Positions 7,079-51,963 of a stretch of DNA of 64,000 nt are shown one piece after another. Both the position numbers and the translations under genes were made by a program. A model generated the notes under the pieces. The model made no database searches. It saw nothing but the letters and a program-made list of their open reading frames with translations, and was not told where the DNA came from. Numbering within the stretch: the stretch's first letter is position 1; each line of letters begins with the position of its first letter. This DNA comes from Steroidobacteraceae bacterium. GTDB taxonomy: Bacteria; Pseudomonadota; Gammaproteobacteria; Steroidobacterales; Steroidobacteraceae. The stretch is from contig DATJFN010000055.1 of the NCBI GenBank assembly GCA_035495635.1, forward strand, positions 539 through 64,538. Direction: 5' to 3'.

Positions 7079-7103
7079 GATCCTTTGAGTATAAGGGCAT
7101 GCC

Positions 7104-23213: not shown

Positions 23214-25313
23214 TCAGGAGAGCGAGAGGAGCGAGAGGAGCTCTTCCTGCGCCGAATAACGCTTGCCGCTCCTGGGCACCTGGCGCTGGTAGCCGCCTTC
23301 CGAGTCCATGACCCAGCTCTGGCAGTTGTCGTCGAGGTAGGGCTTCAGCCCCTCCTTGATGACGCGCCGCTTCAGCCGCTCGTCGAGGATCGGGAAGCCG
23401 AGCTCGATGCGGCGGAAGAAGTTCCGGTCCATCCAGTCGGCCGAGGACAGCCACACGTCGTCGGCGCCATCGTTCTTGAACCAGATCACGCGCGAGTGCT
23501 CCAGGAAGCGCCCGACGATCGAGCGCACGCGGATGTTTTCCGAGAGCCCCTCGACGCCCGGCTGCAGCGCGCAGATGCCGCGCACGATGAGGTCGATCTT
23601 CACGCCCGCCTTCGAGGCCGCGTACAACTCGTTGATGATGCCCGGCTCGAGCAGCGCATTCATCTTCGCGACGATGCGCGCCGGCCGCCCTTCGGAGGCG
23701 ATGCGCGCCTCGTTCCGGATCGCGTCGATCATCCGCTTGTGCAGCGTGAACGGCGATTGCCAGAGGTGCTTCAGGCGCTTTGCGCGTCCGAGTCCCGTCA
23801 GCTGCTTGAATACCTCGTTCACGTCGCTGCAGATCTCCTCGTTGGCGGTGAGGAGTCCCCAGTCCGTATAGAGCGTCGTTGTCGCCGAGTGGTAGTTGCC
23901 GGTACCCAGGTGCGCGTAGCGCTTCAGCACCGTGCCGTCCGGGCCCTGCTCGCGCCGCACGATCAGCGCCATCTTTGCGTGCGTCTTGTGGCCGACGACG
24001 CCGTAGATGACGTGCGCGCCGACCGCCTCCAGCTGCGCCGCCCAGTTGAGGTTCGCCTCCTCGTCGAAGCGTGCGAGCAGCTCGACGACGACCGTCACTT
24101 CTTTCCCCGCCCGCGCGGCGTCGAGGAGGATCTGCATCAGCTCCGAGGTCGCGCCGGTCCGGTACACCGTCTGCTTGATCGCGATCACGCGCGGGTCGAA
24201 TGTGCTCGACCGGATGAAATCGAGCACCGGCTGGAACGACTGGTACGGGTGGTGCAGCAGGACGTCCTGCCGCGCGATCGTCTGGAACAGGTCGTCGTCG
24301 CCCATCTCGATCGCCGCGGGCACCGAGGGCGCGAATGCCGGGTACTTGAGGTCCGGCCGGTCGATCTCGGTCAGCACCTCGCGCAGCCGGTAGAGGTTTA
24401 CCGGCCCGTCCGTGTGATAAAGGTCCTGCTCGTCGAGCTGGAACTGCTGCAGCAGGAAGTCGATCATCGCGGGCGAAATTTCCTCGACCACTTCGAGCCG
24501 CACCGCGTCACCGAAATGCCGCTGCATCAGCTCGCCCTGCAGCGCAATGCGCAGGTTCTTGATTTCTTCCTCGTCGACGAAGAGGTCGGAGTTGCGTGTC
24601 ACCCGGAACTGGTAGCAGCCCTTCACGGTCATGCCCGCGAACAGCTCGTCGATGTGCGCGTGCAGCACGCTCGTCAGGTACACGAAGGAGTACTCGCTCC
24701 CCGCGATCGCGGCCGGCAGCCGGATCGCGCGCGGCAGCACGCGGGGCGCCTGCACGATGGCGACGCGCGAGCTCCGTCCGAAGGCGTCGCGGCCTTCGAG
24801 CTCCACGATCATGTTGAGGCTCTTGTTAAACACGCGCGGAAACGGGTGGGCCGGGTCGAGCCCGATCGGCGTCAGGACGGGAAGCACCTCGCGCGTGAAA
24901 TAGTCGTGCACCCAGGCGCGCTGCGCGTCATTCCAGGTGCCGCGCCTCAGGAAGTGAATACCGGACGCCGCGAGCTGCGGCAGAAGCACGTCGTTCAGAA
25001 GGTCGAACTGCTTCGTGACGAGGTCGCGCGCCTCGCGGTAGACGATCGCCAGCGTCTCCTTCGGCGTGAGCCCGTCCGGCCCGGGATCCGAGATGCCGAG
25101 CTTGATCTGCTCCTTGATGCCGGCGACGCGGATCTCGAAGAACTCGTCGAGGTTCGAGGAGACGATCGTCAGGAAGCGCAGCCTCTCGAGCAGCGGCACG
25201 GACTCGTCGGCCGCCTGCGCGAGCACGCGGCGGTTGAACGCGAGTATCCCGAGCTCCCGGTTCAGCAGCGGAACCCGGGGCGCCATCTTGGCCGTCATGA
25301 GGCGCATGAGCAT
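23214..25313 (-). CDS. ppk: polyphosphate kinase 1
   Basis: 699 aa. LNRELGILAFNRRVLAQAADESVPLLERLRFLTIVSSNLDEFFEIRVAG is the conserved PPK1 N-terminus. In-frame ATGs at 25313, 25307, 25298 and 25286 leave the exact start ambiguous. Confidence 0.93.
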   Translation of the reverse strand: MLMRLMTAKMAPRVPLLNRELGILAFNRRVLAQAADESVPLLERLRFLTIVSSNLDEFFEIRVAGIKEQIKLGISDPGPDGLTPKETLAIVYREARDLVTKQFDLLNDVLLPQLAASGIHFLRRGTWNDAQRAWVHDYFTREVLPVLTPIGLDPAHPFPRVFNKSLNMIVELEGRDAFGRSSRVAIVQAPRVLPRAIRLPAAIAGSEYSFVYLTSVLHAHIDELFAGMTVKGCYQFRVTRNSDLFVDEEEIKNLRIALQGELMQRHFGDAVRLEVVEEISPAMIDFLLQQFQLDEQDLYHTDGPVNLYRLREVLTEIDRPDLKYPAFAPSVPAAIEMGDDDLFQTIARQDVLLHHPYQSFQPVLDFIRSSTFDPRVIAIKQTVYRTGATSELMQILLDAARAGKEVTVVVELLARFDEEANLNWAAQLEAVGAHVIYGVVGHKTHAKMALIVRREQGPDGTVLKRYAHLGTGNYHSATTTLYTDWGLLTANEEICSDVNEVFKQLTGLGRAKRLKHLWQSPFTLHKRMIDAIRNEARIASEGRPARIVAKMNALLEPGIINELYAASKAGVKIDLIVRGICALQPGVEGLSENIRVRSIVGRFLEHSRVIWFKNDGADDVWLSSADWMDRNFFRRIELGFPILDERLKRRVIKEGLKPYLDDNCQSWVMDSEGGYQRQVPRSGKRYSAQEELLSLLSLS

Positions 25314-25324
25314 CCGGTTCTGAA

Positions 25325-25342
25325 GTTACAGTCCGATGACAG
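25325..25342 (-). promoter_or_regulatory. candidate Pho box (PhoB site) facing ppk
   Basis: The minus strand reads CTGTCAT-CGGA-CTGTAAC, compared with the E. coli consensus CTGTCAT-A(A/T)A(T/A)-CTGT(C/A)A(C/T). It lies in the 74 bp ppk/ppx divergent gap. Confidence 0.45.
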
Positions 25343-25387
25343 GACCAGTTTACGCGCGCGCGGGGCGAGTGTTACCGTCGCCCGCGG

Positions 25388-26875
25388 ATGACGCGCCATG
25401 AAACCCTCGCCGCGGTCGACCTCGGCTCCAACAGCTTCCATCTCCTGGTCGGACGTATCGTAGACGGCCAGATTTACCCACTTGACACGCTGCGGGAGCA
25501 GACCCAGCTGGGCGCTGGTCTGACAGCGGACAAGAAGCTCGATCGGGCGAGCCAGTCGCGCGCGCTCGAGGTGCTGGCGCAGTTCCGCGAGCGCCTGCGC
25601 GGGCTGCCGCGCGACGCCGTGCGCGCCGTCGGCACGAATGCGCTCCGCATCGCCAAGAACTCGCCGGCTTTCCTGCGTGAGGCACGCGAGACGCTCGGCT
25701 TTCCGATCGAGGTGATCGCCGGCCGCGAAGAGGCACGCCTCATCTATCTCGGTGTCGCACACGCGCTGCCGCCCACGGAGAACAAGCGCCTCGTCGTCGA
25801 CATCGGCGGCGGCTCCACCGAGCTGATCGTCGGCCAGGGGCTCAAGCCGAAGCTGCTCGAGAGCCTCTACATGGGCTGCGTCAGCTCGAGCCTCCGGCAC
25901 TTTCCCGACGGCCGCATCGACAAGAAGGGCCTGAAGGCCGCGGTACTCGAGGCTCGCCAGGAGCTCGCCGTCGTCGCGGAGCGCTACAAGCGGTCTGGCT
26001 GGAAGGAGGCTGTCGGTTCCTCCGGCACGGCGCGGAGCATCGAAGGCATCCTGCTCGAGAACCGGTGGACCACGCAGGGCATCACGCGCGACGGGCTCGA
26101 CCAGCTCTGGGACCTCCTGTTGGACGCCGGTCGCGCCGACCCGGACCGCATCCCGGGGCTCAAGTCTGCCCGTGCAGCCGTGCTGCCCGGCGGCTTCGCG
26201 ATCATGTACGCGATTTTCGACGAGCTCGACATCGAAGAAATGCGGGTGTCCGAAGCGGCGCTCCGCCACGGCGTGCTCTATGACCTGCTCGGCCGGGTCA
26301 TGCACGCCGACATGCGCGAGGCGACGGTGACGCAGTTCATGCGGCGCTACCACGTCGATGCAGCGCAGGCGGCGCGCGTGCGCGACCTGGCGCTGCGCAT
26401 TTACGACCAGCTCTCCGGCAAGTCCGCGAATGGCGACGATCCCGACCGGCTGGCGCTCGACTGGGCCGCGCGGCTCTCCGAGGTCGGCCTCTCGATCGCG
26501 CATGCGCAGTACCACCGGCACTCGGCCTACGTGCTCTCGAATGCCGACATGCCGGGCTTCTCGCGCGTCGAGCAGCAGCGGCTCGCGCGCCTCGTGCTCG
26601 CGCACCGGGGCAAGCTGGTCAAGATCCCGACCGACGGCCTCGAGGGCACGGACTGGAATCTCGTGTTTGCGCTCCGGCTCGCATCGACGCTGCTGCGCCG
26701 GCGGAGGAAAGTGCGGCTGCCGTCGTTCCGCGCGCTCGCGGGCGACGCCCGCTACTCGATCGAGCTGCCGAAGTCCTGGCTCGAGCGGAACGCGCTGACC
26801 GCCGCCGCGCTCGAGTCCGAGGCAGGGTACTGGGAGGCCGTCGGGCGCTCGCTGCTCGTGCGCCGGATGTCCTGA
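25388..26875 (+). CDS. ppx: exopolyphosphatase (Ppx/GppA family)
   Basis: 495 aa. AAVDLGSNSFHLLVGR, IDIGGGSTELI and a C-terminal HD-like domain. Confidence 0.9.
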   Translation: MTRHETLAAVDLGSNSFHLLVGRIVDGQIYPLDTLREQTQLGAGLTADKKLDRASQSRALEVLAQFRERLRGLPRDAVRAVGTNALRIAKNSPAFLREARETLGFPIEVIAGREEARLIYLGVAHALPPTENKRLVVDIGGGSTELIVGQGLKPKLLESLYMGCVSSSLRHFPDGRIDKKGLKAAVLEARQELAVVAERYKRSGWKEAVGSSGTARSIEGILLENRWTTQGITRDGLDQLWDLLLDAGRADPDRIPGLKSARAAVLPGGFAIMYAIFDELDIEEMRVSEAALRHGVLYDLLGRVMHADMREATVTQFMRRYHVDAAQAARVRDLALRIYDQLSGKSANGDDPDRLALDWAARLSEVGLSIAHAQYHRHSAYVLSNADMPGFSRVEQQRLARLVLAHRGKLVKIPTDGLEGTDWNLVFALRLASTLLRRRRKVRLPSFRALAGDARYSIELPKSWLERNALTAAALESEAGYWEAVGRSLLVRRMS

Positions 26876-32183: not shown

Positions 32184-34355
<2,172 letters not shown>

Positions 34356-34409
34356 TCAGTCCTCTTCGCGTGGGGCGCACAGGATGCGCCTCCATCCGCC
34401 ATTCGTACA

Positions 34410-34446
34410 ATCAATTGTAACTATCGTTTTGATAGACTTTGCCTAT
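34410..34446. promoter_or_regulatory. candidate OxyR operator in the katG/oxyR divergent region
   Basis: ATCA-N7-CTAT-N7-ATAG-N7-CTAT, compared with the consensus ATAG-N7-CTAT-N7-ATAG-N7-CTAT (14/16 core positions, same 37 bp span). It lies in the only AT-rich stretch here and overlaps the oxyR ATG. Confidence 0.5.
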
Positions 34447-35329
34447 GAACCTCCGCGACCTCGAGTACCTGGTCGCGCTCGCCGAGACGCGTCATTTCGG
34501 CCGCGCGGCCGCGCGCTGCCACGTGTCGCAGCCGACGCTCTCCGCGCAGCTTCGCAAGCTCGAGGACTTCCTCGGCGTCGCCCTCGTCGAGCGCCGCCCC
34601 GGCCCGCTCGCGCTGACGGCCGCGGGCGACGCGGTCGTCGATCGCGCGCGGCGCATCCTCCGGGACGCCGAGGACATCCGGAGCCTCGCGCGGGCGAGCC
34701 AGGACCCGCTCTCCGGGCCGCTGAAGGTCGGCCTCATTCCGACGCTCGGGCCCTACCTCCTGCCGCGCGTGGCGCCCCGGATCGCGAAGATGCTGCCGAA
34801 GCTGTCGCTGCTGCTGCACGAGTACCAGACGGCACCGCTCGTGGAGCGGACGCTCGCGGGCGAGCTCGACCTCGCGATCCTCGCGCTGCCGGCGGACACG
34901 AAGGGCCTCGTCACGCGCTCGCGGTTCGACGAGCCCTTCCTCGACGCCATGCCCGCTCGCCATCGCTTCGCGTCGAAGAAGCGAGTGAAGGCCACCGAGC
35001 TCGAGGGCGAGAAGCTCCTGCTCCTCGAGGAGGGGCATTGCCTGCGCGACCAGGCGCTCGAAGTTTGCGAGCACCTCGGCACGGAGGAACAGGCGTTCCG
35101 CGCTACGAGCCTCGAGACATTGCGGCAGATGGTCGCGTCCGGCCTCGGCCTCACGCTGCTGCCGGAGCTAGCGGCCGATGGGCCGTTCGCGGCGGCGCAC
35201 GGACTTGCGGTGCGCCCCTTCGCCGCGCCGATGCCCAAGCGCGTCGTCGGCGGAGCGTGGCGGCGCTCGACTTCGCGCGGTGCGGCGATCGCGGCGGTGT
35301 GCGATCTCATCGTCCGTGCCGCACCGTGA
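34445..35329 (+). CDS. oxyR: LysR-family hydrogen peroxide-sensing regulator OxyR
   Basis: MNLRDLEYLVALAETRHFGRAAARCHVSQPTLS (HTH) and the redox pair context LLLLEEGHCLRDQALEVC. It is divergent from katG. Confidence 0.85.
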   Translation: MNLRDLEYLVALAETRHFGRAAARCHVSQPTLSAQLRKLEDFLGVALVERRPGPLALTAAGDAVVDRARRILRDAEDIRSLARASQDPLSGPLKVGLIPTLGPYLLPRVAPRIAKMLPKLSLLLHEYQTAPLVERTLAGELDLAILALPADTKGLVTRSRFDEPFLDAMPARHRFASKKRVKATELEGEKLLLLEEGHCLRDQALEVCEHLGTEEQAFRATSLETLRQMVASGLGLTLLPELAADGPFAAAHGLAVRPFAAPMPKRVVGGAWRRSTSRGAAIAAVCDLIVRAAP

Positions 35330-35350
35330 CCACGTGCTGCGGCTGGCCGC

Positions 35351-36085
35351 CTACACGGTGATCGAGAGGAGCTGGTAAAGGCCGCCGAAGTAGGTTCGCT
35401 TGCGCACGGCGACCCGGGATCCCGGCGGAAGCCAGCTGGTGATCTCGGCGCGCCACAAGTCGAGCGCGAACGGCTCCAGCATCCCGAACACGCCCGCCAT
35501 CAGCCAGTACAGCGGATGCAGGCGCTTCGGGCGGTGATAGTCGACGACCACGATGCGGCCTCCCGGTCGCACCACGCGCAGTGCCTCCGCCAGCGTCTCG
35601 CGGCGGACAGCGGCCGGCTGCTCGTGCAGCAGGAAGAACAGCATTGCCCGGTCGTAGCTGCCTGTCGGGCACTCGAGCGCTGCGCTGTCTCCCTGGAACA
35701 GCTCCACCGCGGGTGATTCCCTGCTATCGGGTCCACGCCGCCGCAGCAGGCTGGCCGGCAGCTTGCGCGCCAGGTTATCGAGTTGAACGCGCAGCACGTC
35801 GACCACGTGAAGCTTGGCGCCGTGCGCAAGCCGCGCGGCGATGCGGCTTGTCAGGTCCCCGTATACGCAGGAGACCTGCAGCGTCCGCCCGGGCAGGCTT
35901 CCGCCGAGCGCAGCGAGCGCCGCGTTGCGCAGGCGGCCGTAATTACCCCACAGGATCAGGTTGACGAGCCATTGCCGCTCGAACAGGCGAACCGCCCGCG
36001 GATGCACGTAGGCCCACCAATACGTCCGCACCAGGTAATCCGGCACGTCTGCATCAGGCCTCGGCAATCGCACTTCCGCGTGCAA
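35351..36085 (-). CDS. rquA: RquA-like methyltransferase-fold protein (candidate rhodoquinone biosynthesis enzyme)
   Basis: 244 aa. VPDYLVRTYWWAYVHPRAV, a degenerate SAM motif I (LQVSCVYGDL instead of DxGxGxG), VVVDYHRP, LEPFALDLWR and TYFGGLYQLL match, from memory, the RquA pattern of Rhodospirillum rubrum. The TTG track start is uncertain. It lies 27 nt downstream of mtrB on the same strand. Confidence 0.6.
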   Translation of the reverse strand: MHAEVRLPRPDADVPDYLVRTYWWAYVHPRAVRLFERQWLVNLILWGNYGRLRNAALAALGGSLPGRTLQVSCVYGDLTSRIAARLAHGAKLHVVDVLRVQLDNLARKLPASLLRRRGPDSRESPAVELFQGDSAALECPTGSYDRAMLFFLLHEQPAAVRRETLAEALRVVRPGGRIVVVDYHRPKRLHPLYWLMAGVFGMLEPFALDLWRAEITSWLPPGSRVAVRKRTYFGGLYQLLSITV

Positions 36086-36112
36086 GGGGAGCTCTGCCCG
36101 GCCAGGTCCCGG

Positions 36113-38287
36113 TTACGGCCCGGGACTCGGCGCGGCGGCTGCGGCGCCGCCGAATCGATAGCGGAACGAGAGGCCGATGAGCTTGGCGTCGTGATCGTAA
36201 GGATCGGCGCCGCTCGCGAGGACCGACGGCACCGTGTCGGGCTCGACGCCTTCGAGCGCCCAGTCGTGGGCATCGAAATGCTCGTAACGCAGCGTGCCGA
36301 TGACGTCGAGCGCCGGCGTCGCCGCGAATTGCACCTCGAGGCTCGGCCCGTGCGAGCGCGTGCGCAGCGACGGAAACGCCTGCGGCGCGCCGCTCTGCAT
36401 CTCGACGTCGCCATCGCCGTCGATCAGGAAATATTCGAACCGCAAATTCCAGCGCTCCCCGAGACGATCGGCCCTGATGCCGGCAGAGGCCGTATCGAAC
36501 CGGTCGCGACTCCTCGCCTCCCAGTCCGGCGCGCCGAACGACTGGCTGCCGCTCAGGCGGCTCACGATCTCCTGCCGCCCGTATGAAGCATACGCAAAGA
36601 AGCGCTCGGACATCGCCCACGACAGGTCGGCCGTTTCGCCGGAATCCCGGCTGCGCGTGAGGCCGAGGCTGGAGTTGACGTAGTCGTCCAGGTAATAGAA
36701 GCCGCCCAGCGAGACCGTCACGTGACCGGGCAGCGCGAAGTCGATCCCGGCATCCCAGAAGTCGCGCTCGCGGTCGGCCAGGTTGAACTTGCGCATCAGC
36801 GGATTCTGCGGCGCGCTCGCCGCCGTGTCCGGGACATAAGGATCCGTGTCGCGGTTGGCGCCGCCGTAGCGAGCCTGGATAGAGAGCCAGGCGAGCGGGT
36901 TCGCGCGCAGCCGCGCCCACGCGCGGTCCTCCGTCGCCTGCGCGGCTTCCTGGAAGGTCCGGTCCCACTCCTCGTGGTCCCACTCCGCGGAGAGTTGCAG
37001 CGGCCGGCCGGCCTGCGGCCACAGCAGGCGCGCGAGGTCGTAGTCGCCGGCCAGCCAGAACTTCTGGCGCCGGAAACTGTAGGGCGTGTTCGTCTCGGCT
37101 CCGCCGGGGAAGGTGTCGCTCTCCACCGTGTCGTACTCGGCGCGCGGCGTGCCATTGTCACGGTCGTCGTAGCGGTACCCCAGCCTGCCGCGCAGCCCTT
37201 CGAGCCAGGAGACTTGCGCGCCCAGGTCGCCGCGGAGTTGCAGGTCGATGTGCGTGACGTCGACGCTGCCGTCCAGCGACTCGCGCGGCAGCGTGCCGGT
37301 CGCGATCAACGCGTTGGTTGTATAGGGCAGGAACGCATCATTCTGCGACGCCCGGCCCAGCGATCCGTTGAACGTCAGGCGCCACGTTGCACCGAGCGCA
37401 TAGCCGAGGCTGACCGCGAGCTGGTTGAACTGGTTATCCGGCTCCAGTGCCGTGCGCCCGCGGTCGGCCCCGGGTGCGATCGCGCTGAACGGGTTGTCCC
37501 AGGCGTAGTCCCACTGGCCCGAGAAGAAAGAGCCGAAGTAGCTGACGGCGACGCTCCCCCGCGACATCTCGTACCGCGCAGACCAGTCGACCTGATCGGT
37601 CACCGTGTCGACCGGGCTCGCGAGCTGGCTCGTGGTGGTGACGAAGTTGGCGCCGCGCAGCCGGTTGCCGTCGCGCGTCTCGTGCGTGAAATGCAGGTCG
37701 GTCTTCCAGCGCGAAGCGCCGTGGAGGCTGCCATCGAGCTGCCAGCGCTCGCGTGTCGTTGCGACGTCGTAGCCGCGCAACGAAGAGTCGAGTTCCGTCA
37801 TGAGCTGCGTGCTGCCGGCGCGTACCCAGCCCGCAGGGAGTCCCAGCGACGAGCCGCCGCCGAGGAATGGCGTGACGGTGGTGTCGTAGCGGTTGTACGG
37901 CGCCGCGATGTAGCCCGCTTCGACCTTCCAGGCGCCCGCGCGGCCCGCCGCGACTTCGACGCTACGATCGTCCAGGCCGAGATCCCGGGCAACTGCGGAC
38001 CAGTAAGCGCCATCCTCGCGGCGCTCGCCGGCAGAGCCGTCGAGCACGAGGTAGCCTCCGTCCTCGGTGATGCCGTCGAATTCGCCGAACCGGGCCGTGG
38101 CGCCGTCGGCGTAGAGGCTGCCCGCCTCCGCTTCAACCACCGGCTTGCCGTCCTCGAACGGGCAGAAATTGCATTCCCAACCGGAGGTGTCCACGGGCGC
38201 ACCGAGCGCGGGCCAGGCCGCGCACAGCGTCAGCGCCGGCAAGACAGGGGAGCGCACGACTCCGCCCATGGATGTGCGTGTCGTCAT
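36113..38287 (-). CDS. mtrB: MtrB/PioB-family decahaem-associated outer-membrane porin
   Basis: C-terminal 724 aa of track ORF 36113..39094. MTTRTSMGG...signal peptide, then the N-terminal CxxC motif (WECNFCPFE) typical of MtrB, then a long beta-barrel. The ATG overlaps the mtrA stop (ATGA). Confidence 0.85.
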   Translation of the reverse strand: MTTRTSMGGVVRSPVLPALTLCAAWPALGAPVDTSGWECNFCPFEDGKPVVEAEAGSLYADGATARFGEFDGITEDGGYLVLDGSAGERREDGAYWSAVARDLGLDDRSVEVAAGRAGAWKVEAGYIAAPYNRYDTTVTPFLGGGSSLGLPAGWVRAGSTQLMTELDSSLRGYDVATTRERWQLDGSLHGASRWKTDLHFTHETRDGNRLRGANFVTTTSQLASPVDTVTDQVDWSARYEMSRGSVAVSYFGSFFSGQWDYAWDNPFSAIAPGADRGRTALEPDNQFNQLAVSLGYALGATWRLTFNGSLGRASQNDAFLPYTTNALIATGTLPRESLDGSVDVTHIDLQLRGDLGAQVSWLEGLRGRLGYRYDDRDNGTPRAEYDTVESDTFPGGAETNTPYSFRRQKFWLAGDYDLARLLWPQAGRPLQLSAEWDHEEWDRTFQEAAQATEDRAWARLRANPLAWLSIQARYGGANRDTDPYVPDTAASAPQNPLMRKFNLADRERDFWDAGIDFALPGHVTVSLGGFYYLDDYVNSSLGLTRSRDSGETADLSWAMSERFFAYASYGRQEIVSRLSGSQSFGAPDWEARSRDRFDTASAGIRADRLGERWNLRFEYFLIDGDGDVEMQSGAPQAFPSLRTRSHGPSLEVQFAATPALDVIGTLRYEHFDAHDWALEGVEPDTVPSVLASGADPYDHDAKLIGLSFRYRFGGAAAAAPSPGP

Positions 38288-39237
38288 CGTGTGAGCCTGC
38301 TGCCGGACGGATGATTCGAGCCGTGGACCTGCGAATGGCAGTTGAGGCAGCTGCCCGCCACCAGGTAAGGGGACGGCGCGCCCGCGGCGGGAAGTCCCTC
38401 GGGCCCGTAGGCAAAGCTCGGATGGCCGACCTGCGAATGGCATTGCTGGCACAGCAAGGGCGCACGCTGGGTCAGCATCGCCGGCTGGCTCGAGCCGTGA
38501 GGCACGTGGCAGTTCGAGCAGTCCTCCGCGACCGGCGCGTGCTCCCAGAGGAACGGCCCGCGCTTTTCGCCATGACAGGAATAGCAGGTTTCGTTGAGCG
38601 AGGCCCGGCGCAGGCTGAAGTCGTTGGCCGATCCGTGCGGCGCGTGGCACCCGGTGCACGCCATCAAGTTGCCTTCCATCGGGTGGTGGAAGGGCTTTGA
38701 GTACTGGGTGTGCTCCCGCTGGTGGCAGTCGAAGCAGACCATCGCCTGCCGATCCACCGTTTGGACGTCGTCCCTGGCCGCATGGATGCGGTGGCAACCG
38801 GCGCAGGCGACTCCGTTCTGCTCGTGCACGCCCGCATGCCAGGCGTCGCCGACCGCGTCGGCATGGCAACCGAGGCAAGCTTCGTTCTGCTGCGCGGACG
38901 GCGCCTGCGACCCGGCGCCGAAGCGCAGCACGGCCGGCCGCGGCTGCCCGCTGCGCACGCGCCCGGCATGTGCGCCGCCGGGACCGTGGCAGGCTTCGCA
39001 TTGAAGCTGGCCGGCGCCGAACGGCGCATGCGGATCGGCGCGCGAGCCGTGCGGCGTCTTGAACAACGACAGCACGTCCGCGTCGTCGTGACACTTGATG
39101 CAGGTATCGGCGCCGTTCCGGCTGTACTCCGCCTCAGCCTGCGATTCCGGAGCCGGCGCGGCCGCGGCCGCCGCTTCCGCCAGCCACGCCGCCGCAAGGA
39201 GAGCGCCGGCGATCAGCGGCAAGCGTCGGGACCTCAC
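38284..39237 (-). CDS. mtrA: periplasmic decahaem c-type cytochrome, MtrA/DmsE/PioA family
   Basis: 317 aa with a signal peptide and exactly ten CxxCH motifs (CIKCH, CEACH, CLGCH, CAGCH, CFDCH, CTGCH, CYSCH, CSNCH, CQQCH, CLNCH). GTG start. Confidence 0.9.
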   Translation of the reverse strand: MRSRRLPLIAGALLAAAWLAEAAAAAAPAPESQAEAEYSRNGADTCIKCHDDADVLSLFKTPHGSRADPHAPFGAGQLQCEACHGPGGAHAGRVRSGQPRPAVLRFGAGSQAPSAQQNEACLGCHADAVGDAWHAGVHEQNGVACAGCHRIHAARDDVQTVDRQAMVCFDCHQREHTQYSKPFHHPMEGNLMACTGCHAPHGSANDFSLRRASLNETCYSCHGEKRGPFLWEHAPVAEDCSNCHVPHGSSQPAMLTQRAPLLCQQCHSQVGHPSFAYGPEGLPAAGAPSPYLVAGSCLNCHSQVHGSNHPSGSRLTR

Positions 39238-39247
39238 GCGGTCCCTG

Positions 39248-41614
39248 CTAGGGACCGACGTTGTGCATGAGCTTCACGTCGGCGGTGCGGCCGGGGCCAT
39301 GGCAGATCGTGCAGGACTCGACGCCCGACGAGACGATTGCGCCTTCCGCGGTCTTGCCGGCGTTGAAGTCGCCGCCGTTCTGCTCCATGTGCACGTGCGC
39401 CAGGTCGCTGCTGTGGCAGGCCGAGCAGGCCGCTGCGTTCGGGCTCACGGCGCGATCGTCCGCGAGCGTCGTGCGATCGCCGGCATCGAAGGTCGTTGCG
39501 TGAACCACCGAGCCGTCCACCGGATAGTAGGTATTCGGCTTGTGACAGTTCTCGCAGTTGTCCAGATGGCCGGGGAACCTGAGGTCAGTGAAATCGTTGA
39601 TCGAGTTGTTGAACCCGCAGACCTGGAATTGCGCCGAGTGAATCTGGTGGATCATGAACTTGAAGTCGATGGCCTGGTCATCCGGCCCGAGCCCGGGCGA
39701 CACGGGATCCGTCGGCGAATTGCTGCATGGCGGCAAGCGGCGCGCGATATCCGTGTTGTTCGGGTTGTGGCAGGTCGTGCAGAGCTCCGTGTTCTCCGTG
39801 CGATTGCCGCCGTGCAGCGAGAGCACGTTGTGGCAGGCGTCGCAGCGCGAGAGCTCGACTACCTGGCGGCGCGGCGTCGCGGCGGCGTCCGTGATCGGGA
39901 AGACCAGCCCAGTCGACGAGATCGGGATGTTCTCGAGCAAGCCGTCGCCGTTGGCGTCGACGCGCGCCCTGCCTTCGAGCAGCGCCTCGCCGGAGCCCGT
40001 CATGAAGAGCGGGATCGGGATCGTGGAGGTCGCGGAGAAGGTCAGGTCCGCATTCTTGACCACGGCGGGATCCAGGAAATTGATCCGCACCGGCAGCGCC
40101 GGCGTGCCGACGTCCGGCGCCGTCGCGGAACCGCTGCCGCGGTTGTTGAAATCGGCCGTGTTCCAGGCGATGTTCACGGTGAGCGAGGCGCCCGGCTGCC
40201 TGAACGGTCCGGCCGGATCCGTGGTGTCGTACGGCGCATCGCCGTTGGTCGGGTCCGTGACCTGGATGGTGACCGTCGGGTTCTGGCCCGGCGCTGTATT
40301 GGCCACGCTCACGACCGTGTACTTGAACTTCTGGGACGCGAGCTTCTCCGGTATCTCGTGCACCTTGATGGTGCGCAGGTCGCCGTTGTTGATGGTCGCG
40401 TCAGGCCCGTGGCAGGTCGCGCAGTCCGAGTCCTGCACGGCGAGGTTCGCGGCGCTGTGGCCCTGGCCGGTCTGGAAATTGATCAGCACCGGAGACGGTC
40501 CCTGCGGAACGCCGGCCACGATCTGCTGCGTGGTCGCGTCATGGCAGGCGCCGCAGGCCGCCGAGTTGACGGTGATCCGGAAGTTGCTCGCCTGCGGCGT
40601 GTCGGCGTCCGTCTCCTCGTGGCAAGTCGTGCAGTTGCGGTGGTCCTGCGGGAAGGCGACGTCGCTGAACTCGTGCAGCGTCCCGCCAAACCCGTAGATG
40701 CCGTAACTCAGCCCGAGGCCGATCGTGCCGGTCGTCTGTCCCGTGGGCAGCGTGGCCGGCTGCACGCTCGGCAGCGACTCGCCGCGGTGGATCTTGTGGA
40801 TCATCACCTTGAAATCGACCGTATTGCCGCTCTGCGCGTCGAACGTGGTGGGCGAGTGGCACATCACGCAGTAACGCGTATCGAATCGCGCGCCGCCGTG
40901 GAAGGACAGCTGGTCGTGACAAGCCTCGCAGGTGTCGTTGTCGACGATTTCGCGAGAGAAGATGCCTGTGGTCGCGCCCGTGGAGGGCTGGAAGGTATAA
41001 ACGGGGTTGATCGTCGGCGCGAGGCCGCGGATCTCGAAGCCGACTCGGTGCGTCAGCGTCGCGTCGTACGGAATGTCCGGGTCGTTCGTGATGTTCTTTG
41101 CGAACGTGTACTGATAGGTGCCGTCGCCGTTGTCCACGAACTGGCCGGTGGCGCCATTCTCGGTCGTGGCTTGGTTCACGGGCTGCGTGCCGGGACCCAC
41201 CGGCCCCGGGTTCTCGGTGCGGCGCGTGTAGGCGCGCCAGGAACTCGACTGGCCGCTTTCGCCGGGAGCCAACCGGGCAACCACGAAGCTGATTGCCGGC
41301 GCCGTCAGGCCGGTGAGCGGACGGCCGAGCTCGTCGGCGAGACCGAACTGCACGACCGGCTGCCCGCCGTCCGGCACCGTGACGCCGGTAATGACCGCGG
41401 TGATCTCTTTGGCATTCGCGACGTCGACCGTCGCGCCGCTCCCCGGCGGCCCGGGCGGACCCGGCGGTCCGGGCGGCCCCGGAGATCCGGCCGAACCTTG
41501 GTCCCCGGTGCAGGCCGCGAGAAGAAACGTCAGGCCGAGGATTGCGGCGCAGCCGAACTGTGTCCGGCGGCCGCTAGGTCTTTGAAAGGATGCCCCTGCC
41601 GAGGATGCGCTCAT
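39248..41614 (-). CDS. mtrC: outer-membrane decahaem lipoprotein cytochrome, OmcA/MtrC family
   Basis: 788 aa. Lipobox FLLAAC. Ten CxxCH motifs in two blocks of five, separated by non-haem (beta-barrel-like) segments as in MtrC. A (GPP)4 tether follows the lipid Cys. GGGGGA SD. Confidence 0.8.
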   Translation of the reverse strand: MSASSAGASFQRPSGRRTQFGCAAILGLTFLLAACTGDQGSAGSPGPPGPPGPPGPPGSGATVDVANAKEITAVITGVTVPDGGQPVVQFGLADELGRPLTGLTAPAISFVVARLAPGESGQSSSWRAYTRRTENPGPVGPGTQPVNQATTENGATGQFVDNGDGTYQYTFAKNITNDPDIPYDATLTHRVGFEIRGLAPTINPVYTFQPSTGATTGIFSREIVDNDTCEACHDQLSFHGGARFDTRYCVMCHSPTTFDAQSGNTVDFKVMIHKIHRGESLPSVQPATLPTGQTTGTIGLGLSYGIYGFGGTLHEFSDVAFPQDHRNCTTCHEETDADTPQASNFRITVNSAACGACHDATTQQIVAGVPQGPSPVLINFQTGQGHSAANLAVQDSDCATCHGPDATINNGDLRTIKVHEIPEKLASQKFKYTVVSVANTAPGQNPTVTIQVTDPTNGDAPYDTTDPAGPFRQPGASLTVNIAWNTADFNNRGSGSATAPDVGTPALPVRINFLDPAVVKNADLTFSATSTIPIPLFMTGSGEALLEGRARVDANGDGLLENIPISSTGLVFPITDAAATPRRQVVELSRCDACHNVLSLHGGNRTENTELCTTCHNPNNTDIARRLPPCSNSPTDPVSPGLGPDDQAIDFKFMIHQIHSAQFQVCGFNNSINDFTDLRFPGHLDNCENCHKPNTYYPVDGSVVHATTFDAGDRTTLADDRAVSPNAAACSACHSSDLAHVHMEQNGGDFNAGKTAEGAIVSSGVESCTICHGPGRTADVKLMHNVGP

Positions 41615-41699
41615 GGGTATCCCCCATCATCCACCCCGGCCCGATGGGAACCGGGTGAAAACCCCTAGCGATGATATGCTTCGTTGTGGCTGCTTGCAC

Positions 41700-41713
41700 T
41701 TGATCTGGATCAA
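41700..41713. promoter_or_regulatory. FNR/Anr-type box, perfect consensus
   Basis: TTGAT-CTGG-ATCAA in the 159 bp divergent gap between mtrC (start 41614) and the c4 gene (start 41774). The centre is 67 nt upstream of the c4 start codon and 92 nt upstream of the mtrC start codon. Confidence 0.6.
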
Positions 41714-41773
41714 TTACACGGACCACGGGCTAAGCAAAGACTGCGTCCAGACGTATTTGGGGGGAGTGCGGCC

Positions 41774-42391
41774 GTGAATGCGCCACGCCAAAGCCTGAGC
41801 ATTGCCTTCCTGTTGACCTCGTTGCTCGCGCTGCCGGCGGTCGCCGGCGACGCCGCGACCATGGCAAAGGCCTGCGAGGACTGCCATGGCAAGAACGGCG
41901 TCAGCGAGTCCGACGACGTTCCGACCATCGCCGGCATCTCGGCCCCCGTTCATGGCGATTTCCTGGTGGCCTATCAGGAGAAGGCGCGGCCGTGCCGAGC
42001 TTCCAAGTATCGCCACGGCGACACCTCGCGCCCGGAGACGGACATGTGCGCCATCGCCGCGAAGCTGAGCGATGCGGACGTCGAGGCCGTCGCGGGCTAT
42101 TTCGCGGCGCAATCCTTCGTCCCGGCCAAGCAGCCTTTCGACGCTGCGAAGGCGGCCGCCGGCAAGACCCTGCACGCTCGCGACTGCGCCAAGTGCCACA
42201 CCGATGGCGGACGCAATCCCGATGACGACGCCAGCATCCTGGGCGGCCAGCACCTCAAGTACTTGCAGCAGGCCCTCGCGGACCTCCGGTCCGGGAAGCG
42301 CGAACCGGGCAAGAAGATGGGCGAGAAACTCAAGCCGTTGAGCGACGCCGAGGTCGAGACGCTCGCTCAGTACTACGCCAGCCAGCAATAG
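41774..42391 (+). CDS. dihaem cytochrome c4-like periplasmic protein
   Basis: Trimmed to GTG 41774 (GGGGAG SD 8 nt upstream). Signal peptide ...LLALPAVAGD. Two CxxCH motifs (CEDCH, CAKCH), each in a class I cytochrome c-like half. Confidence 0.75.
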   Translation: MNAPRQSLSIAFLLTSLLALPAVAGDAATMAKACEDCHGKNGVSESDDVPTIAGISAPVHGDFLVAYQEKARPCRASKYRHGDTSRPETDMCAIAAKLSDADVEAVAGYFAAQSFVPAKQPFDAAKAAAGKTLHARDCAKCHTDGGRNPDDDASILGGQHLKYLQQALADLRSGKREPGKKMGEKLKPLSDAEVETLAQYYASQQ

Positions 42392-42423
42392 CGCGCGTTC
42401 GCGCGGGGCGACAGGATCCGCCA

Positions 42424-43053
42424 GTGACGACCGAAAAAGAGAGCTTCTGGGCGCGCCTGTGGCGCCGGCCGAAGAGCCGTTGGCTTCTTGGCATTCCGGC
42501 CGGTGGCCTCGTCATGTTTGTCGCGGGCGTGCTGTTCTGGGGCGGATTCAACTGGACGCTCGAAATGACGAATACGGAGGAGTTCTGCACCTCCTGCCAC
42601 GAGATGCGGGACTTCATCTACCCCGAATACAAGGAGACGATCCACTACTCGAACCGCACCGGCGTCCGCGCGAGCTGCCCGGACTGCCACGTGCCGCATC
42701 CCTACATCTACAAGCTGCAGCGCAAGGTCTACGCGTCCAACGAGCTGTTCCACAAGGTCATGGGGACAGTCGACACGCGCGAGAAATTCGAGGCGAAGCG
42801 CCTCGAGATGGCGCGAAGCGTATGGCATGTCATGAAGACGACGGACTCGCGCGAGTGCCGCAACTGCCACGAGTTCCAGCACATGGATCCCGAAGCGCAG
42901 GAGCGCGTGTCTGCGCGGCGGCATGAGAAGGCGTTCAAGCAGGGTGAAACCTGCATCGACTGCCACAAGGGCATCGCCCACCACCTGCCGAAGGACTACG
43001 ACGAGGAAGCGGAGAAGTCGGCCGGCGCCGAATCGGGCGATTCGCAGCCGTAA
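42424..43053 (+). CDS. cymA: NapC/NirT/CymA-family membrane-anchored tetrahaem quinol dehydrogenase
   Basis: 209 aa. N-terminal TM (WLLGIPAGGLVMFVAGVLFWGGF) and four CxxCH motifs (CTSCH, CPDCH, CRNCH, CIDCH), with the family pattern EFCTSCHEM...H...CPDCHVPH. Confidence 0.85.
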   Translation: MTTEKESFWARLWRRPKSRWLLGIPAGGLVMFVAGVLFWGGFNWTLEMTNTEEFCTSCHEMRDFIYPEYKETIHYSNRTGVRASCPDCHVPHPYIYKLQRKVYASNELFHKVMGTVDTREKFEAKRLEMARSVWHVMKTTDSRECRNCHEFQHMDPEAQERVSARRHEKAFKQGETCIDCHKGIAHHLPKDYDEEAEKSAGAESGDSQP

Positions 43054-45951: not shown

Positions 45952-46344
45952 TCACACGACGGCTGTTGCTTCTATCTCGACTTTGGCACGCGGCTCGAGC
46001 AGCCCCGCGACGACGACCACGGACATCGCGGGGAAATTGCGGCCGATCAGCTCGCGGTAAGCAGCTCCGATCTCGGCGAGCGCCGCGTTGTACTCGTCGC
46101 GGCTCGTGACGTACCAGGTCATGCGGACGAGGTGTTCCGGCTGCGCGCCGGCGCAGGCGAGCACGGCGACGACGTTCGCGAGCGCCTGGCGCACCTGCGA
46201 CGCGAAGTCGTCGCTGACGAAGCGTTGCTCGGCGTCCCAGCCGATCTGCCCCGCGACGAAGACCAGGCGCCCGGCCGCCGCGACGCCATTCGCGTAGCCG
46301 CGCGGCCGTGCCCAGCCGGGCGGCTGCAGGATCTCACGGCTCAT
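45952..46344 (-). CDS. RidA/YjgF family reactive-intermediate deaminase
   Basis: 130 aa. [20 protein letters not shown]...VRMTWYV...[24 protein letters not shown]. The ATG overlaps the upstream stop (ATGA). Confidence 0.85.
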
Positions 46345-47528
46345 TTCAGGAGCTCCCGCGCGACGATGAGCTTCTGCACCTCGCTCGCGCCCTCGTAGAT
46401 GCGCAGCGCCCTTATCTCGCGGTACAGGCGCTCGACCACCGCGCCCTGGACGAGCCCGCGCCCGCCGAAGATCTGCACGGCCCTGTCGATGATCGCCTGC
46501 GCGCTCTCAGTCGCCGTGAGCTTCGCCATCGCGGCCGCGCCGGTGAAGGCGCGTCCCGTGTCACGCAGCCAGGCCGCACGGTAGGTGAGGAGCGTCGCGG
46601 CATCGAGCGCCGTCGCCATTTCCGCAAGCGCCGCCTGCGTCAGCTGGAATTCGGCGAGCGGCTTGCCGAAGAGTCCCCGCGAGCGCGCATGGGCGGCCGC
46701 TTCGTTCAGGGCGCGCCGCGCGAAGCCGCAGGCCGCGGCCGCGACCGAGGTGCGGAACACGTCGAGCGTGCGCATCGCGATCTTGAAGCCCTCGCCTTCC
46801 GCGCCGATGAGCCGCGCCGCCGGGATGCGGCATTCCTCGAAGGCGAGACGCGCGAGCGGGTGCGGCGCCATGGCGTCGATGCGCTCCGCGATCGTGAAGC
46901 CTGAGTCGCCCGGCTTCACGACGAAGGCGCTGATACCCTCGGCCGACACGCTGCCGTCCGGCCGCCGGCTGCCGGGCGCTGTGCGCGCGAACACGACGTA
47001 GAAGTCCGCGATCCCGCCGTTGCTGATCCAGGTCTTCTCGCCGTCCAGCACGTATTGCGCGCCATCGAGCCGCGCCGTCGTCTGCATCGCCGCGACGTCG
47101 GAGCCTGCGCCCGGCTCGGAGAGCGCGAAGGCCGCGATCGACTGCCCGGCACCGACGCGCGGCAGCCACAATGAACGCATCTGCTCGCCGGCCGCGAGCG
47201 AGAGCGGCGCGCTGCCGAGCCCCTGCATCGCAAACGCGAAATCGGCGAGGCCATCGTGGCGCGCGAGCGTCTCTCGGAGGATGCAGATCGAGCGCGCATC
47301 GAGCTCGGTGGCCGGGCCGCCGTCGGCGGCGCGCAGGCAATGCATCAGGAGCCCGGCCTTGCCGAGCGCTGCGACCAGCTCGCGGCAGCGCGCGTCGACG
47401 GCGGCACGCTCCGTCGGGTGGGCGTCACCCGCCAGGTGCGTGCTCGCCCAACTCTCCGCTTCCTCCGCGAGGCGTCGATGCTCCTCGGAGAAGAACGGCC
47501 ATTGCAGTCGCTCGACGTGGCTGTCCAT
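46341..47528 (-). CDS. acyl-CoA dehydrogenase
   Basis: Trimmed to [20 protein letters not shown]... (395 aa). ACAD N, middle and C-terminal domains (...[11 protein letters not shown]..., ...[17 protein letters not shown]). Confidence 0.85.
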
Positions 47529-48352
47529 CAATCCCCCTCGAAGACCGGCTTCATTTTCGCCGCGAAGGCCTCGTAGGCACGGCGGAAATCGGCGCTCTGC
47601 ATGAGCCCCGCCTGGGCCCTCGCCTCGGCGTCGATCGCCTCGTTGACGCCCATGTTCCATTCGAGGTGCAGCATCTTCTTCGTCAGCGCGTGCGCGAGCG
47701 TCGGCCCCGCCGCGAGCTCCGCGGCGATCCTGCCGGCGGTCGCGGGCAATTCGGCGGCCGGCACAATGGCATTGTAGAAACCGATGCGCTCGCCCTCGGC
47801 GGCATCGAAGGCCCGTCCCGTGTAGAGGAGCTCCGCCGCCCGGCCCTGTCCGATCAGCCGCGGCAGCAGCGCACAAGCGCCCATGTCGCAGCCCGCGAGG
47901 CCGACGCGCACGAAGAGAAACGCCGCCTTCGCAGCCGGCGTCGCGTAGCGGAAATCCGAAGCGAGCGCGAGCATCGCGCCCGCACCCGCGCAGATGCCGT
48001 CGATGGCGGAGATGATCGGCTGCGGGCAGGCCCGCATCGCCCGCACGAGGTCACCCGTCATGCGCGTGAACTCGAGGAGCCCCTTCTCGTCCATCTTCGT
48101 GAGCGGCCCGATGATCTCGTGCACGTCGCCGCCCGAGCAGAAGTTTCCGCCGGCGCCGTCGATCACGACGGCGCGCACGCCGCCGCCGTCGTGCAGCAGC
48201 CGGAAGAGGTCGCGGAGCTCTGCGTAGGAGTCGAAGGTGAGCGGGTTCTTCTTTTCCGGGCGGTTGAGCGTCAGGTAACCGACGCGGTTCTCGACGCGCC
48301 ACAGGAAGTGTTTGGCCGCGTAGCCCGTGAGGTCCGGAATCTCGGTCTTCAT
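47528..48352 (-). CDS. enoyl-CoA hydratase/isomerase (crotonase) family protein
   Basis: Trimmed to [10 protein letters not shown]... (274 aa). [15 protein letters not shown] and [22 protein letters not shown]. The start overlaps the marR stop (ATGA). Confidence 0.85.
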
Positions 48353-48837
48353 GCCTCCCCCTCGAGTGAACGGACGTGTGCCTTGAGCCGCGCGAGCAGC
48401 GCCGCCATCTTCGACATCTCGCGGCCCGACAGCTCCTTGAAAGCCTCGACGATCCAGCGCTCGTGTTCCTCGGCCATCGCCGAGAACGCGCGCCGGCCCG
48501 CGCCCGTCAGACGCACGAGACGCGCGCGCCGGTCGCCCGGCTCCGCGACGCGCTCGACGAGGCCTTCCTTCTCGAGCATGTCGGTGATGCCCGTGACGTT
48601 CCCGCCGGTCACCATCATGCGCTTCGAGAGCTCGCCCATCTTGAGCCCTCTCGGCACCCGCTCGAGCTGGGCCATGAGGTCGAAGCGCGGCAACGTCGTC
48701 GCATAGCGCTCCTGGAGCAGCCGGCGCGTGCGCGTCTCGACCAGGCGGTTGGTTGCGAGCATGCGCAGCCACAGCCGGATCGCGCCATGGTCTGCGCGAT
48801 CGACGCGCGTCTCGGCGTCCGTCGCGCGCGCGTCCAT
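48349..48837 (-). CDS. MarR family transcriptional regulator (embedded in the operon)
   Basis: C-terminal 162 aa of track ORF 48349..51423. Winged-helix core [63 protein letters not shown]. Confidence 0.85.
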
Positions 48838-49607: not shown

Positions 49608-49616
49608 TCCGCCTCC

Positions 49617-51899: not shown

Positions 51900-51906
51900 G
51901 GGCGGA

Positions 51907-51935
51907 ATTACAGGCCTGAATTATTTAAATGTCAA
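51907..51935 (-). promoter_or_regulatory. near-consensus sigma-70 promoter-like element with a palindrome in the spacer
   Basis: Minus-strand sense reads TTGACA-(17 nt: TTTAAATAATTCAGGCC)-TGTAAT-TCCGCCC-GTG (the start of the monooxygenase gene). ATTTAAAT overlaps the -35/spacer junction. It lies in an AT-rich 64 bp gap in an otherwise overlapping operon. Confidence 0.4.
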
Positions 51936-51963
51936 CTAAATCCGGCCCGAGCCATGACAGCCG

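Follow-up and report, generated by a model that had tools for sequence, protein, structure and literature searches.

Which genes surround rquA, the gene for the rhodoquinone biosynthesis enzyme, in the genome of a Steroidobacteraceae bacterium? We analyzed a stretch of 64,000 nucleotides from this organism (Gammaproteobacteria; GenBank assembly GCA_035495635.1, contig DATJFN010000055.1, positions 539 to 64,538 of the forward strand), referred to here as the window, in which rquA is the last of four consecutive minus-strand genes, mtrC-mtrA-mtrB-rquA. The rquA gene (35351..36085, minus strand) encodes a 244-aa protein of NCBIfam family NF038261, predicted to carry out the S-adenosylmethionine (SAM)-dependent amino transfer onto ubiquinone. 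A spacer of 27 nt (36086..36112) separates it from mtrB (36113..38269, minus strand), whose 718-aa product is an outer-membrane MtrB/PioB porin (PF11854, E = 1e-129; TIGR03509, 377 versus 240 bits) with an N-terminal CNFC (CXXC) motif; the mtrB stop codon is the TAA at 36113..36115, and both the start and the CXXC motif agree with the gene call on a near-identical contig. Upstream lie mtrA (38284..39237, minus strand), for a periplasmic decahaem cytochrome of the DmsE/MtrA family (TIGR03508, 289 bits against a cut-off of 192; 10 CxxCH motifs), and mtrC (39248..41614, minus strand), for a surface decahaem lipoprotein of the OmcA/MtrC family (TIGR03507, 499 bits against a cut-off of 209; 10 CxxCH motifs; lipobox LLAAC). 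The window therefore holds an MtrCAB conduit, that is, a porin with contiguous MtrA and MtrC, each decahaem and all past curated cut-offs.

Two further cytochrome genes are transcribed divergently from mtrC. One encodes a PdsA-like periplasmic dihaem cytochrome c with a signal peptide and two CxxCH motifs (41774..42391, plus strand; NF049874, 186.9 bits, below the cut-off of 330); the other encodes a CymA-like inner-membrane tetrahaem quinol dehydrogenase of the NapC/NirT family (42424..43053, plus strand; PF03264, E = 2e-74; four CxxCH motifs). The latter falls short of the equivalog cut-offs for NapC and TorC, and no CymA-specific model exists in the libraries used; we call it CymA-like because no napAB genes or nap operon were found around it. 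Since both proteins fall below curated cut-offs, they are best regarded as relatives of PdsA and NapC and not as equivalogs. The tetrahaem gene starts 6.3 kb from the rquA start, in keeping with the 6 kb given in the original prediction, which had been made from the letters of this DNA and had called rquA the fourth gene of an mtr operon.

This parts list—MtrC, MtrA, a CXXC-bearing MtrB, a PdsA-type shuttle, and a NapC/NirT dehydrogenase—is that of the MtrCAB-CymA(-PdsA) systems of Shewanella oneidensis and Aeromonas hydrophila, and the layout of mtrCAB, pdsA, and cymA fits the groups described by Baker et al. 2022 (PMC8805035). In Shewanella and Aeromonas, however, CymA is fed by menaquinol and the clusters carry no quinone-biosynthesis gene, whereas the putative operon of the window carries a gene for one-step synthesis of rhodoquinone. 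Genes of the frd, ubi, and men sets were sought in the 64-kb window and not found there. In G+C content and skew the cluster does not stand out from the host, and its composition thus offers no hint that it was acquired recently.

Identity of the RquA protein

How secure is the assignment of the fourth gene? The original prediction had named its product RquA-like on the strength of four motif stretches, all of which are present in the translation: YWWAYVHP at residues 22-29, LQVSCVYGD at 69-77, VVDYHRP at 180-186, and TYFGGLYQLL at 231-240. A search with the family-specific profile agrees with that name. The RquA equivalog model NF038261, whose cut-off is 175 bits, matches at 281.5 bits (E = 4.6e-84) over positions 1-216 of its 218, while the next-best family reaches 34 bits and the UbiE/MenG models reach 18-27 bits against cut-offs of 158-420. 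When conservation was counted over 81 RquA sequences, 78 positions were conserved at a level of at least 95%, and the window protein agrees with the consensus at 77 of them, including the D96, FFLLHE, VDYH, and YQ motifs. Its SAM motif I (LQVSCVYGD) lacks the GxGxG glycines, as already described for RquA (PMC5953543), and the Q-x-x-C-V-Y-G core is invariant in the 81 sequences.

The two SAM-contacting aspartates that are essential for activity in the Rhodospirillum rubrum enzyme, D118 and D143 (PMC9814641), have counterparts in the window protein, matched by motif position and not by direct alignment. D96, at the end of β2 (HVVD), is invariant in 81/81 sequences; D133, after β3 (QGDSAAL), is an aspartate in 76 sequences and an asparagine in 5. 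By the equivalog model the window protein belongs to the same family as R. rubrum RquA (Rru_A3227) and the verified bacterial and eukaryotic orthologues, with which it shares the degenerate motif I, the conserved post-I and post-β3 aspartates, and the length class (PMC9814641, PMC5953543). It differs from the R. rubrum type in a 12-residue insertion between its two aspartates. The genomic settings differ too: R. rubrum rquA has no reported porin-cytochrome neighbor, and published work on rquA found no consistent linkage beyond complex II and generic "cytochrome" genes.

Where does the protein begin? The original prediction placed a 244-aa open reading frame on the mtrB strand, at most 27 nt past the mtrB stop; with its TTG start (and TAG stop) the frame occupies 35351..36085 and the spacer is exactly 27 nt. 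An alternative GTG at codon 14 (36046), chosen by the gene caller of the Joint Genome Institute (JGI), would give 231 aa and a 66-nt gap to mtrB. We favor the TTG and the 27-nt spacer because the proteins of relatives begin MHA..V....DA.VP.YL in register with it, their N-terminal 13 residues aligning with those of the window protein. Either start would be expected to give an active enzyme, since the first 40 residues of R. rubrum RquA are dispensable.

Among genomes, the nearest by RquA are Steroidobacteraceae metagenome-assembled genomes (MAGs) of the Gammaproteobacteria, at 71-73% identity, and an identical RquA protein is present on four JGI metagenome contigs. The ratio of nonsynonymous to synonymous substitution rates (dN/dS) of rquA against relatives is 0.17-0.31, which indicates purifying selection. 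A sequence search of the PDB returned one marginal methyltransferase match (E = 0.0012) and no solved RquA for comparison. Judged by its profile scores, motifs, and selection, the open reading frame is most likely a gene for a functional RquA, the single enzyme that takes ubiquinone to rhodoquinone.

Transcriptional layout of the mtrCAB-rquA cluster

Is rquA transcribed together with the conduit? We compared the window with loci from two linkage surveys, one of 80 species-representative (GTDB) genome loci and one of 80 metagenome loci, made by profile searches of six-frame open reading frames; survey loci are labeled L001 and so on. Each collection comprises the 80 best matches to the query and so represents the query's part of the RquA tree. 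Gene calls in such high-G+C DNA are heuristic.

The gaps mtrC-mtrA, mtrA-mtrB, and mtrB-rquA measure 10, 14, and 27 nt, all on one strand. Spacers before rquA are of nearly constant length across the family, about 25-30 nt (25-26 nt in three related metagenome contigs and ~30 nt in genome loci), and eight or more contigs of that family keep the unit mtrC-mtrA-mtrB-rquA. The fuller layout, with napC and pdsA diverging from the mtrC-mtrA-mtrB-rquA arm, recurs in L003, L004, L005, L085, L089, L090, and a contig labeled P0021. Junctions in other lineages can be tighter still: in L126 it reads TAG-G-ATG (1 nt), with the Shine-Dalgarno sequence inside mtrB; in L125 the gap is 3 nt; and in L017 the rquA frame overlaps mtrB.

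The 27-nt spacer of the window contains no FNR box and no promoter-like or terminator-like site, and the 3' end of mtrB together with the spacer holds no FNR-like box at up to two mismatches and no sigma-70-like site. Scans of 34300..42500 for terminators and sigma-70 promoters found no sites; such scans are weak in DNA of 69% G+C, so their emptiness is uninformative. A GC-rich stem-loop of 14 bp does reach into the spacer (36098..36135, minus strand), with the mtrB stop codon in its loop. It is more stable than most shuffled sequences (z = -2.3 to -2.4; 2 of 200 shuffles fold as well), but it lacks a U tract and has no conserved counterpart in L003, L004, L005, L085, L089, or L090, and we therefore do not regard it as terminator-like. 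Its absence from these six related loci also led us to reject it as a functional element. The original prediction had seen no terminator-like hairpin between the two genes; that holds for terminators, and it needs amending for the stem-loop.

A candidate regulatory site lies instead at the head of the cluster. An FNR/CRP-type box, TTGATCTGGATCAA (41700..41713), stands in the 159-bp divergent region that separates mtrC from pdsA; no other exact match to TTGAT-N4-ATCAA occurs in the 64-kb window, where shuffles give an expectation of 0.02. The same box, with 0-1 mismatches, occupies the same place in L004, L005, L082, L085, and L090; at this stringency it is absent from L003 and L089.

Decayed loci bear on where rquA transcription begins. 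In L001 (9581-9929) and L002 (8600-9930), both from Steroidobacteraceae MAGs, mtrC, mtrA, and most of mtrB have been deleted, rquA-frdABCD (frdABCD being the fumarate reductase genes) has been kept, and a 300-750-nt remnant of the mtrB 3' end remains in front of it. An FNR box lies just upstream of the remnant, exact in L002 (at 9154) and with one mismatch in L001 (at 9581), as would be expected if rquA transcription starts upstream of mtrB. In L002, napC and pdsA are also reduced to fragments.

Overall, rquA most likely closes a transcription unit, mtrC-mtrA-mtrB-rquA, that is induced under anaerobic conditions; we infer co-transcription and FNR control from the gene order, spacing, and box placement described above. 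Of the claim that rquA is the fourth mtr operon gene, the fourth position, the tight gaps, and the conserved order are borne out directly, and co-transcription is the probable reading of them.

Recurrence of the linkage and the place of fumarate reductase

How often does rquA stand beside a porin-cytochrome cluster? Counting an MtrB/PioB gene as directly upstream when it lay on the rquA strand and at most 500 bp away, and using only loci with a readable upstream flank, we found the pairing in 12 of 75 genome loci and 15 of 65 metagenome loci. Further loci carry napC-mtrA-mtrB or tandem MtrC/OmcA decahaem genes within 10 kb of rquA in other arrangements. The original prediction had proposed a synteny survey of rquA beside mtrB/pioB homologues, and the pairing does recur, in many independent genomes. 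The loci as such are not phylogenetically independent. At least five porin lineages are represented beside rquA, with identities of only 21-35% from one lineage to another. Random placement would produce adjacency at ~1e-4 per genome, and five independent events among 75 would then have a probability of ~5e-13. In a neighbor-joining RquA tree the linked loci occur in several clades; we did not count joining events from it because such a tree is crude.

One pair of Burkholderiales loci differs in the porin region. L015 (7423-9887) and L019 (7276-9887) are collinear at 76-87% nucleotide identity except for the 3' part of mtrA and the whole of mtrB, where a non-homologous version has been substituted and the two MtrB proteins are only 24% identical; the FNR box, rquA, and frd behind them are unchanged. 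The comparison suggests that the porin was exchanged much as a cassette would be, within a napC-mtrA-[mtrB]-rquA-frd frame that stayed fixed. Most members of the window's family share the esterase...oxyR-katG context around the block, whose inheritance looks mainly vertical. We do not claim the six-gene block as a mobile unit; only L085 differs on both flanks.

How does the linkage relate to described systems? The mtrC-less napC-mtrA-mtrB layout of the rquA-linked Burkholderiales loci is shared with MtoAB-CymA/ImoA of Sideroxydans lithotrophicus ES-1 and PioAB of Rhodopseudomonas palustris. Published descriptions, however, assign the Mto and Pio clusters to Fe(II) oxidation and report neither rquA nor frd with them, and the window, with its MtrC, belongs to the reducer type. 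Rhodoferax (Albidoferax) ferrireducens T118 is a cultured Fe(III) reducer with mtrCAB (PMC8805035) and also a described rhodoquinone producer with an rquA orthologue (PMC6529003), two traits left unconnected in the literature searched. In a MAG labeled R. ferrireducens (PMC5953543 supplement), rquA adjoins ccmA/ccmB, not mtrB.

Several other settings of rquA came up in the surveys. CcmC-like and CcmF-like open reading frames, identified from their N-terminal sequences only, lie near rquA in L126 (10095-13260); with the R. ferrireducens MAG, this makes cytochrome c maturation genes a second link between rquA and c-type cytochromes. In four Burkholderiales loci of another RquA clade (L040, 13499-20682; L045, 14024-20282; L062, 7465-15635; and L145), rquA lies 2-4 kb upstream of two to three tandem MtrC/OmcA-like decahaem genes with 10 CxxCH motifs each, and a hemerythrin gene separates rquA from these; the loci end before any mtrAB becomes visible. 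High-G+C, proteobacterial-looking rquA contigs in MAGs labeled Streptomycetaceae, Enterobacteriaceae, or Clostridia (L008, L017, L032, and L057) are probably mis-binned or mislabeled.

In both surveys the commonest neighbor of rquA is neither porin nor cytochrome. Unbiased clustering of neighbors picked out E. coli-type frdABCD immediately downstream, with FrdA, FrdB, FrdC, and FrdD confirmed by Pfam. FrdA, assigned in the surveys by tblastn coordinates, is present in 45 of 80 genome loci; as the immediate downstream neighbor of rquA it was counted in 29 of 78 genome loci and in 21 of 59 from metagenomes. The product of frdABCD is the classical user of rhodoquinol. The two associations overlap: frd also occurs in 10 of the 12 MtrB-linked genome loci (Fisher p = 0.0005), most MtrB-linked loci being mtrAB-rquA-frdABCD and the typical form [napC]-mtrA-mtrB-rquA-frdABCD. 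Clusters of rquA-frdABCD were noted by Stairs et al. 2018, and the same unit stands directly after mtrB in the closest relatives of the window (L003, L005, and L090, with mtrCAB-rquA-frdAB(CD)).

The window, L004, L085, and the P0021 contig, by contrast, have no frd at the site and keep mtrCAB-rquA, whereas L001 and L002 lost mtr and kept rquA-frd. What follows rquA in the frd-less loci of the window type is a convergent LysR/OxyR-like gene or something else. Two further cluster types have mtrB-rquA pairs without frd, one comprising L017, L105, and L126 and the other L125, so that eight such loci, from at least three lineages, are known in all. On this comparison the window is a derived form without frd at the locus, in which rquA is held by purifying selection. 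That rquA persists beside one partner where the other is gone is to be expected if rhodoquinone serves both, and RquA looks like a shared quinone supplier, or hub, for two low-potential sinks, Mtr and Frd.

Has the coupling been described before? No paper describing or interpreting an RquA-Mtr coupling turned up in the literature searched, and a literature search on Steroidobacter quinones gave nothing useful. The adjacency is nevertheless visible in the supplementary neighbor table of Stairs et al. 2018, which places MtrB_PioB at position -1 and multihaem cytochromes at -2/-3 of rquA in Burkholderiales bacterium JOSHI_001 and Noviherbaspirillum denitrificans, and a NapC/NirT gene at -2 in two Comamonadaceae. 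There it is filed under "cytochrome," and the main text names no neighbors beyond "cytochrome" and complex II. Baker et al. 2022, who treated mtr clusters and their passenger genes, mention no methyltransferase and no rquA (PMC8805035). The view in the original prediction that the coupling was undescribed thus stands for its interpretation, while the bare adjacency was already on record, unremarked. The components are known; what the literature searched does not describe is their coupling into a module of Mtr/Mto type that brings its own source of low-potential quinone.

The remainder of the window is more varied. On the far side of rquA, a convergent LysR/OxyR-like gene (34439..35329, plus strand) ends 21 nt from the rquA stop codon, and katG (32184..34352, minus strand) is next, so that an oxidative-stress pair abuts the anaerobic module, a neighborhood kept in most relatives; folding of the convergent junction gave nothing beyond shuffles. 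L082 (JGI 3300044699, an 86.9-kb contig) is another assembly of the same population, 98.5% identical to window positions 25364-46044, and 70 gap openings split its MtrC, MtrA, MtrB, and KatG gene calls, probably through assembly errors and not as pseudogenes. A very large open reading frame, truncated at the edge of the window (2-7105, minus strand) and longer than 2,368 aa, has GH94 supersandwich and glucoamylase-like domains and resembles a cyclic β-1,2-glucan synthase/phosphorylase. An ordinary housekeeping context is provided at 23214-26875 by ppk (minus strand, from Pfam) and a divergent putative Ppx/GppA exopolyphosphatase (plus strand, assigned from the L082 gene call and the translation). 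A series of genes for the CoA-dependent catabolism of aromatic or acyl compounds (46341-53541, minus strand) includes, from Pfam, an AMP-dependent ligase, an acyl-CoA dehydrogenase, and a 760-aa fused FAD-monooxygenase/old-yellow-enzyme protein that resembles 2-aminobenzoyl-CoA monooxygenase/reductase, together with a short-chain dehydrogenase/reductase and a probable enoyl-CoA hydratase recognized from translations alone. Beyond it, at 53646-56453 (plus strand), lies a 935-aa protein of unusual architecture, which joins an α/β-hydrolase-like N-terminus to a peptidase M17 N-domain and has a CHAT domain at its C-terminus.

Rhodoquinone and the electron supply of the conduit

What could a rhodoquinone gene contribute to an MtrCAB conduit? 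RquA alone converts ubiquinone to rhodoquinone, with SAM as the amino donor and Mn2+ (PMC9814641). Rhodoquinone has an E0' of about -63 mV, close to that of menaquinone, and the two rarely co-occur (in 5 of 84 rquA genomes; PMC11707229). Shewanella CymA is a menaquinol-7 dehydrogenase for which oxidation of ubiquinol is thermodynamically unfeasible (PMC3340143), and the main survey of mtr clusters states that the recipient of such a cluster needs menaquinone genes (PMC8805035).

In the mechanism that we propose, a fall in oxygen would allow an FNR-type activator to bind the box between mtrC and pdsA and to switch on both arms, mtrCAB-rquA on one side and pdsA with the CymA-like napC on the other. 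RquA would then convert part of the ubiquinone pool to rhodoquinone, lowering the potential of the pool, and dehydrogenases would reduce rhodoquinone to rhodoquinol. Rhodoquinol, unlike ubiquinol, should be reducing enough for the CymA-like tetrahaem protein, from which electrons could pass via PdsA and MtrA to surface MtrC and on to Fe(III) or Mn(IV) minerals or humic substances. That RquA is co-expressed anaerobically with the conduit, that rhodoquinol feeds the CymA-like dehydrogenase, and that electrons leave through PdsA, MtrA, and MtrC is a reading to which we give slightly better than even chances; the gene identities and their arrangement, the presence of the FNR box, and the repeated linkage are observed, and from them we infer the use of rhodoquinol by the CymA-like protein and the outward direction of flow.

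Several observations weigh against this reading. The TTG start and weak Shine-Dalgarno sequence of rquA suggest low translation, and the stable stem-loop at the mtrB stop of the window could attenuate read-through. The dN/dS of rquA is 0.31 in the frd-less pair, higher than the 0.12-0.17 among frd-linked relatives. In five Burkholderiales loci (L015, L019, L063, L068, and L105), an FNR-like box sits in an mtrB-rquA spacer of ~110 nt, which implies a separate rquA-frd promoter there, the genes being co-regulated and not co-transcribed. Frd is the commoner partner of rquA, so that adjacency to Mtr could be secondary to an rquA-frd unit. The weak step in the electron path is the quinone site: Shewanella CymA needs a naphthoquinone cofactor, and a homologue using rhodoquinone would therefore need an adapted site.

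Could the gene or its expression be other than we suppose? Close homologues are named "ubiquinone/menaquinone biosynthesis C-methylase UbiE" or "SAM-dependent methyltransferase" by JGI pipelines, and the Pfam matches of the window protein are to generic class I methyltransferase domains (Methyltransf_25/11, Ubie_methyltran), so that an ordinary UbiE/UbiG-like methyltransferase that makes no rhodoquinone might be suspected. We find that hardly credible: the gulf between the RquA equivalog score and the UbiE/MenG scores is decisive, the glycine-less motif I is that of RquA, and NCBI gives the name RquA to a homologue of 73% identity. The own promoter seen in other lineages raises a different possibility, namely that rquA of the window is transcribed alone from a promoter inside the mtrB 3' end, its place after mtrB being due only to common regulation or to compaction of the genome. 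The stem-loop at the mtrB stop would suit this, as would the retention in both L001 and L002 of an mtrB 3' end that might embed a promoter. Yet the stem-loop is not conserved, the FNR box of the decayed loci lies upstream of the mtrB remnant and not within it, scans of the window's mtrB 3' end and spacer show no FNR-like or sigma-70-like sites, and the family spacer keeps its length; solitary transcription is accordingly improbable, and it is in any case compatible with functional coupling and not exclusive of it.

A weightier alternative is that RquA serves fumarate reductase only, the porin-cytochrome clusters merely adjoining an FNR-controlled rquA-frdABCD unit in an anaerobic-respiration island, so that in the window frd has moved or been lost and rquA is a leftover. 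The prevalence of frdABCD next to rquA, its presence in most MtrB-linked genome loci and in the closest relatives of the window, the FNR-like box directly upstream of rquA in some loci, and the published tie of RquA to complex II (PMC5953543) all speak for it. It must contend, however, with intact rquA under purifying selection beside mtrB in the eight frd-less loci, some with gaps of 1-3 nt or gene overlap, with the lack of any frd homologue in the 64-kb window, with very divergent porin lineages whose linkage survives a cassette swap, and with a negligible chance expectation. On balance we judge it rather unlikely. The conduit might also run inward, as in MtoAB and PioAB, taking electrons from Fe(II), minerals, or cathodes, with the rhodoquinone pool delivering them to fumarate reductase or easing reverse flow to NAD+. 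Many linked Burkholderiales clusters are Mto-like, with napC-mtrA-mtrB and no mtrC ahead of rquA-frdABCD, and CymA-type enzymes are reversible (PMC3340143). The window, by contrast, has a full MtrC/OmcA-type surface decahaem protein and a PdsA-like shuttle, the layout of metal reducers; its FNR box points to expression under anoxia, when the cell is short of an external acceptor; and, from established potentials, Fe(II) would reduce a quinone of -63 mV less readily than ubiquinone, which offers no obvious advantage for uptake. Inward flow in this organism seems to us quite improbable.

What would an outward-running, rhodoquinol-fed conduit mean more widely? Mtr-type extracellular respiration is understood almost wholly from Shewanella, where it depends on menaquinol. 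To our knowledge, most Betaproteobacteria and many Gammaproteobacteria make no menaquinone, which raises the question of where their CymA homologues obtain sufficiently reducing electrons. One answer, concrete and open to test, is an rquA gene in the conduit's putative operon, a pairing that recurs across five or more divergent lineages of porin. We tentatively put forward, at somewhat less than even chances, the broader proposal that rhodoquinol, not menaquinol, is the physiological donor of CymA-type dehydrogenases and Mtr/Mto conduits across menaquinone-less Gammaproteobacteria and Betaproteobacteria, with rquA as a portable "quinone adaptor" of a single gene, moving along with porin-cytochrome clusters or remaining beside them.

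If this proposal is true, the extracellular-respiration module could work in ubiquinone-only hosts, a rhodoquinone-dependent mineral respiration would be defined, and rquA would be a simple part for transplanting Mtr pathways into menaquinone-less or ubiquinone-only hosts. An rquA gene beside mtrB may serve as a marker for the direction and quinone dependence of uncharacterized conduits in soil and groundwater metagenomes. Cultured carriers exist in Rhodoferax ferrireducens T118, Noviherbaspirillum denitrificans, and Burkholderiales bacterium JOSHI_001. The coupling would extend the known role of rhodoquinone past fumarate reduction, and the recurring rquA-mtr pairing suggests that menaquinone-poor lineages of soil and freshwater power mineral respiration with rhodoquinone.

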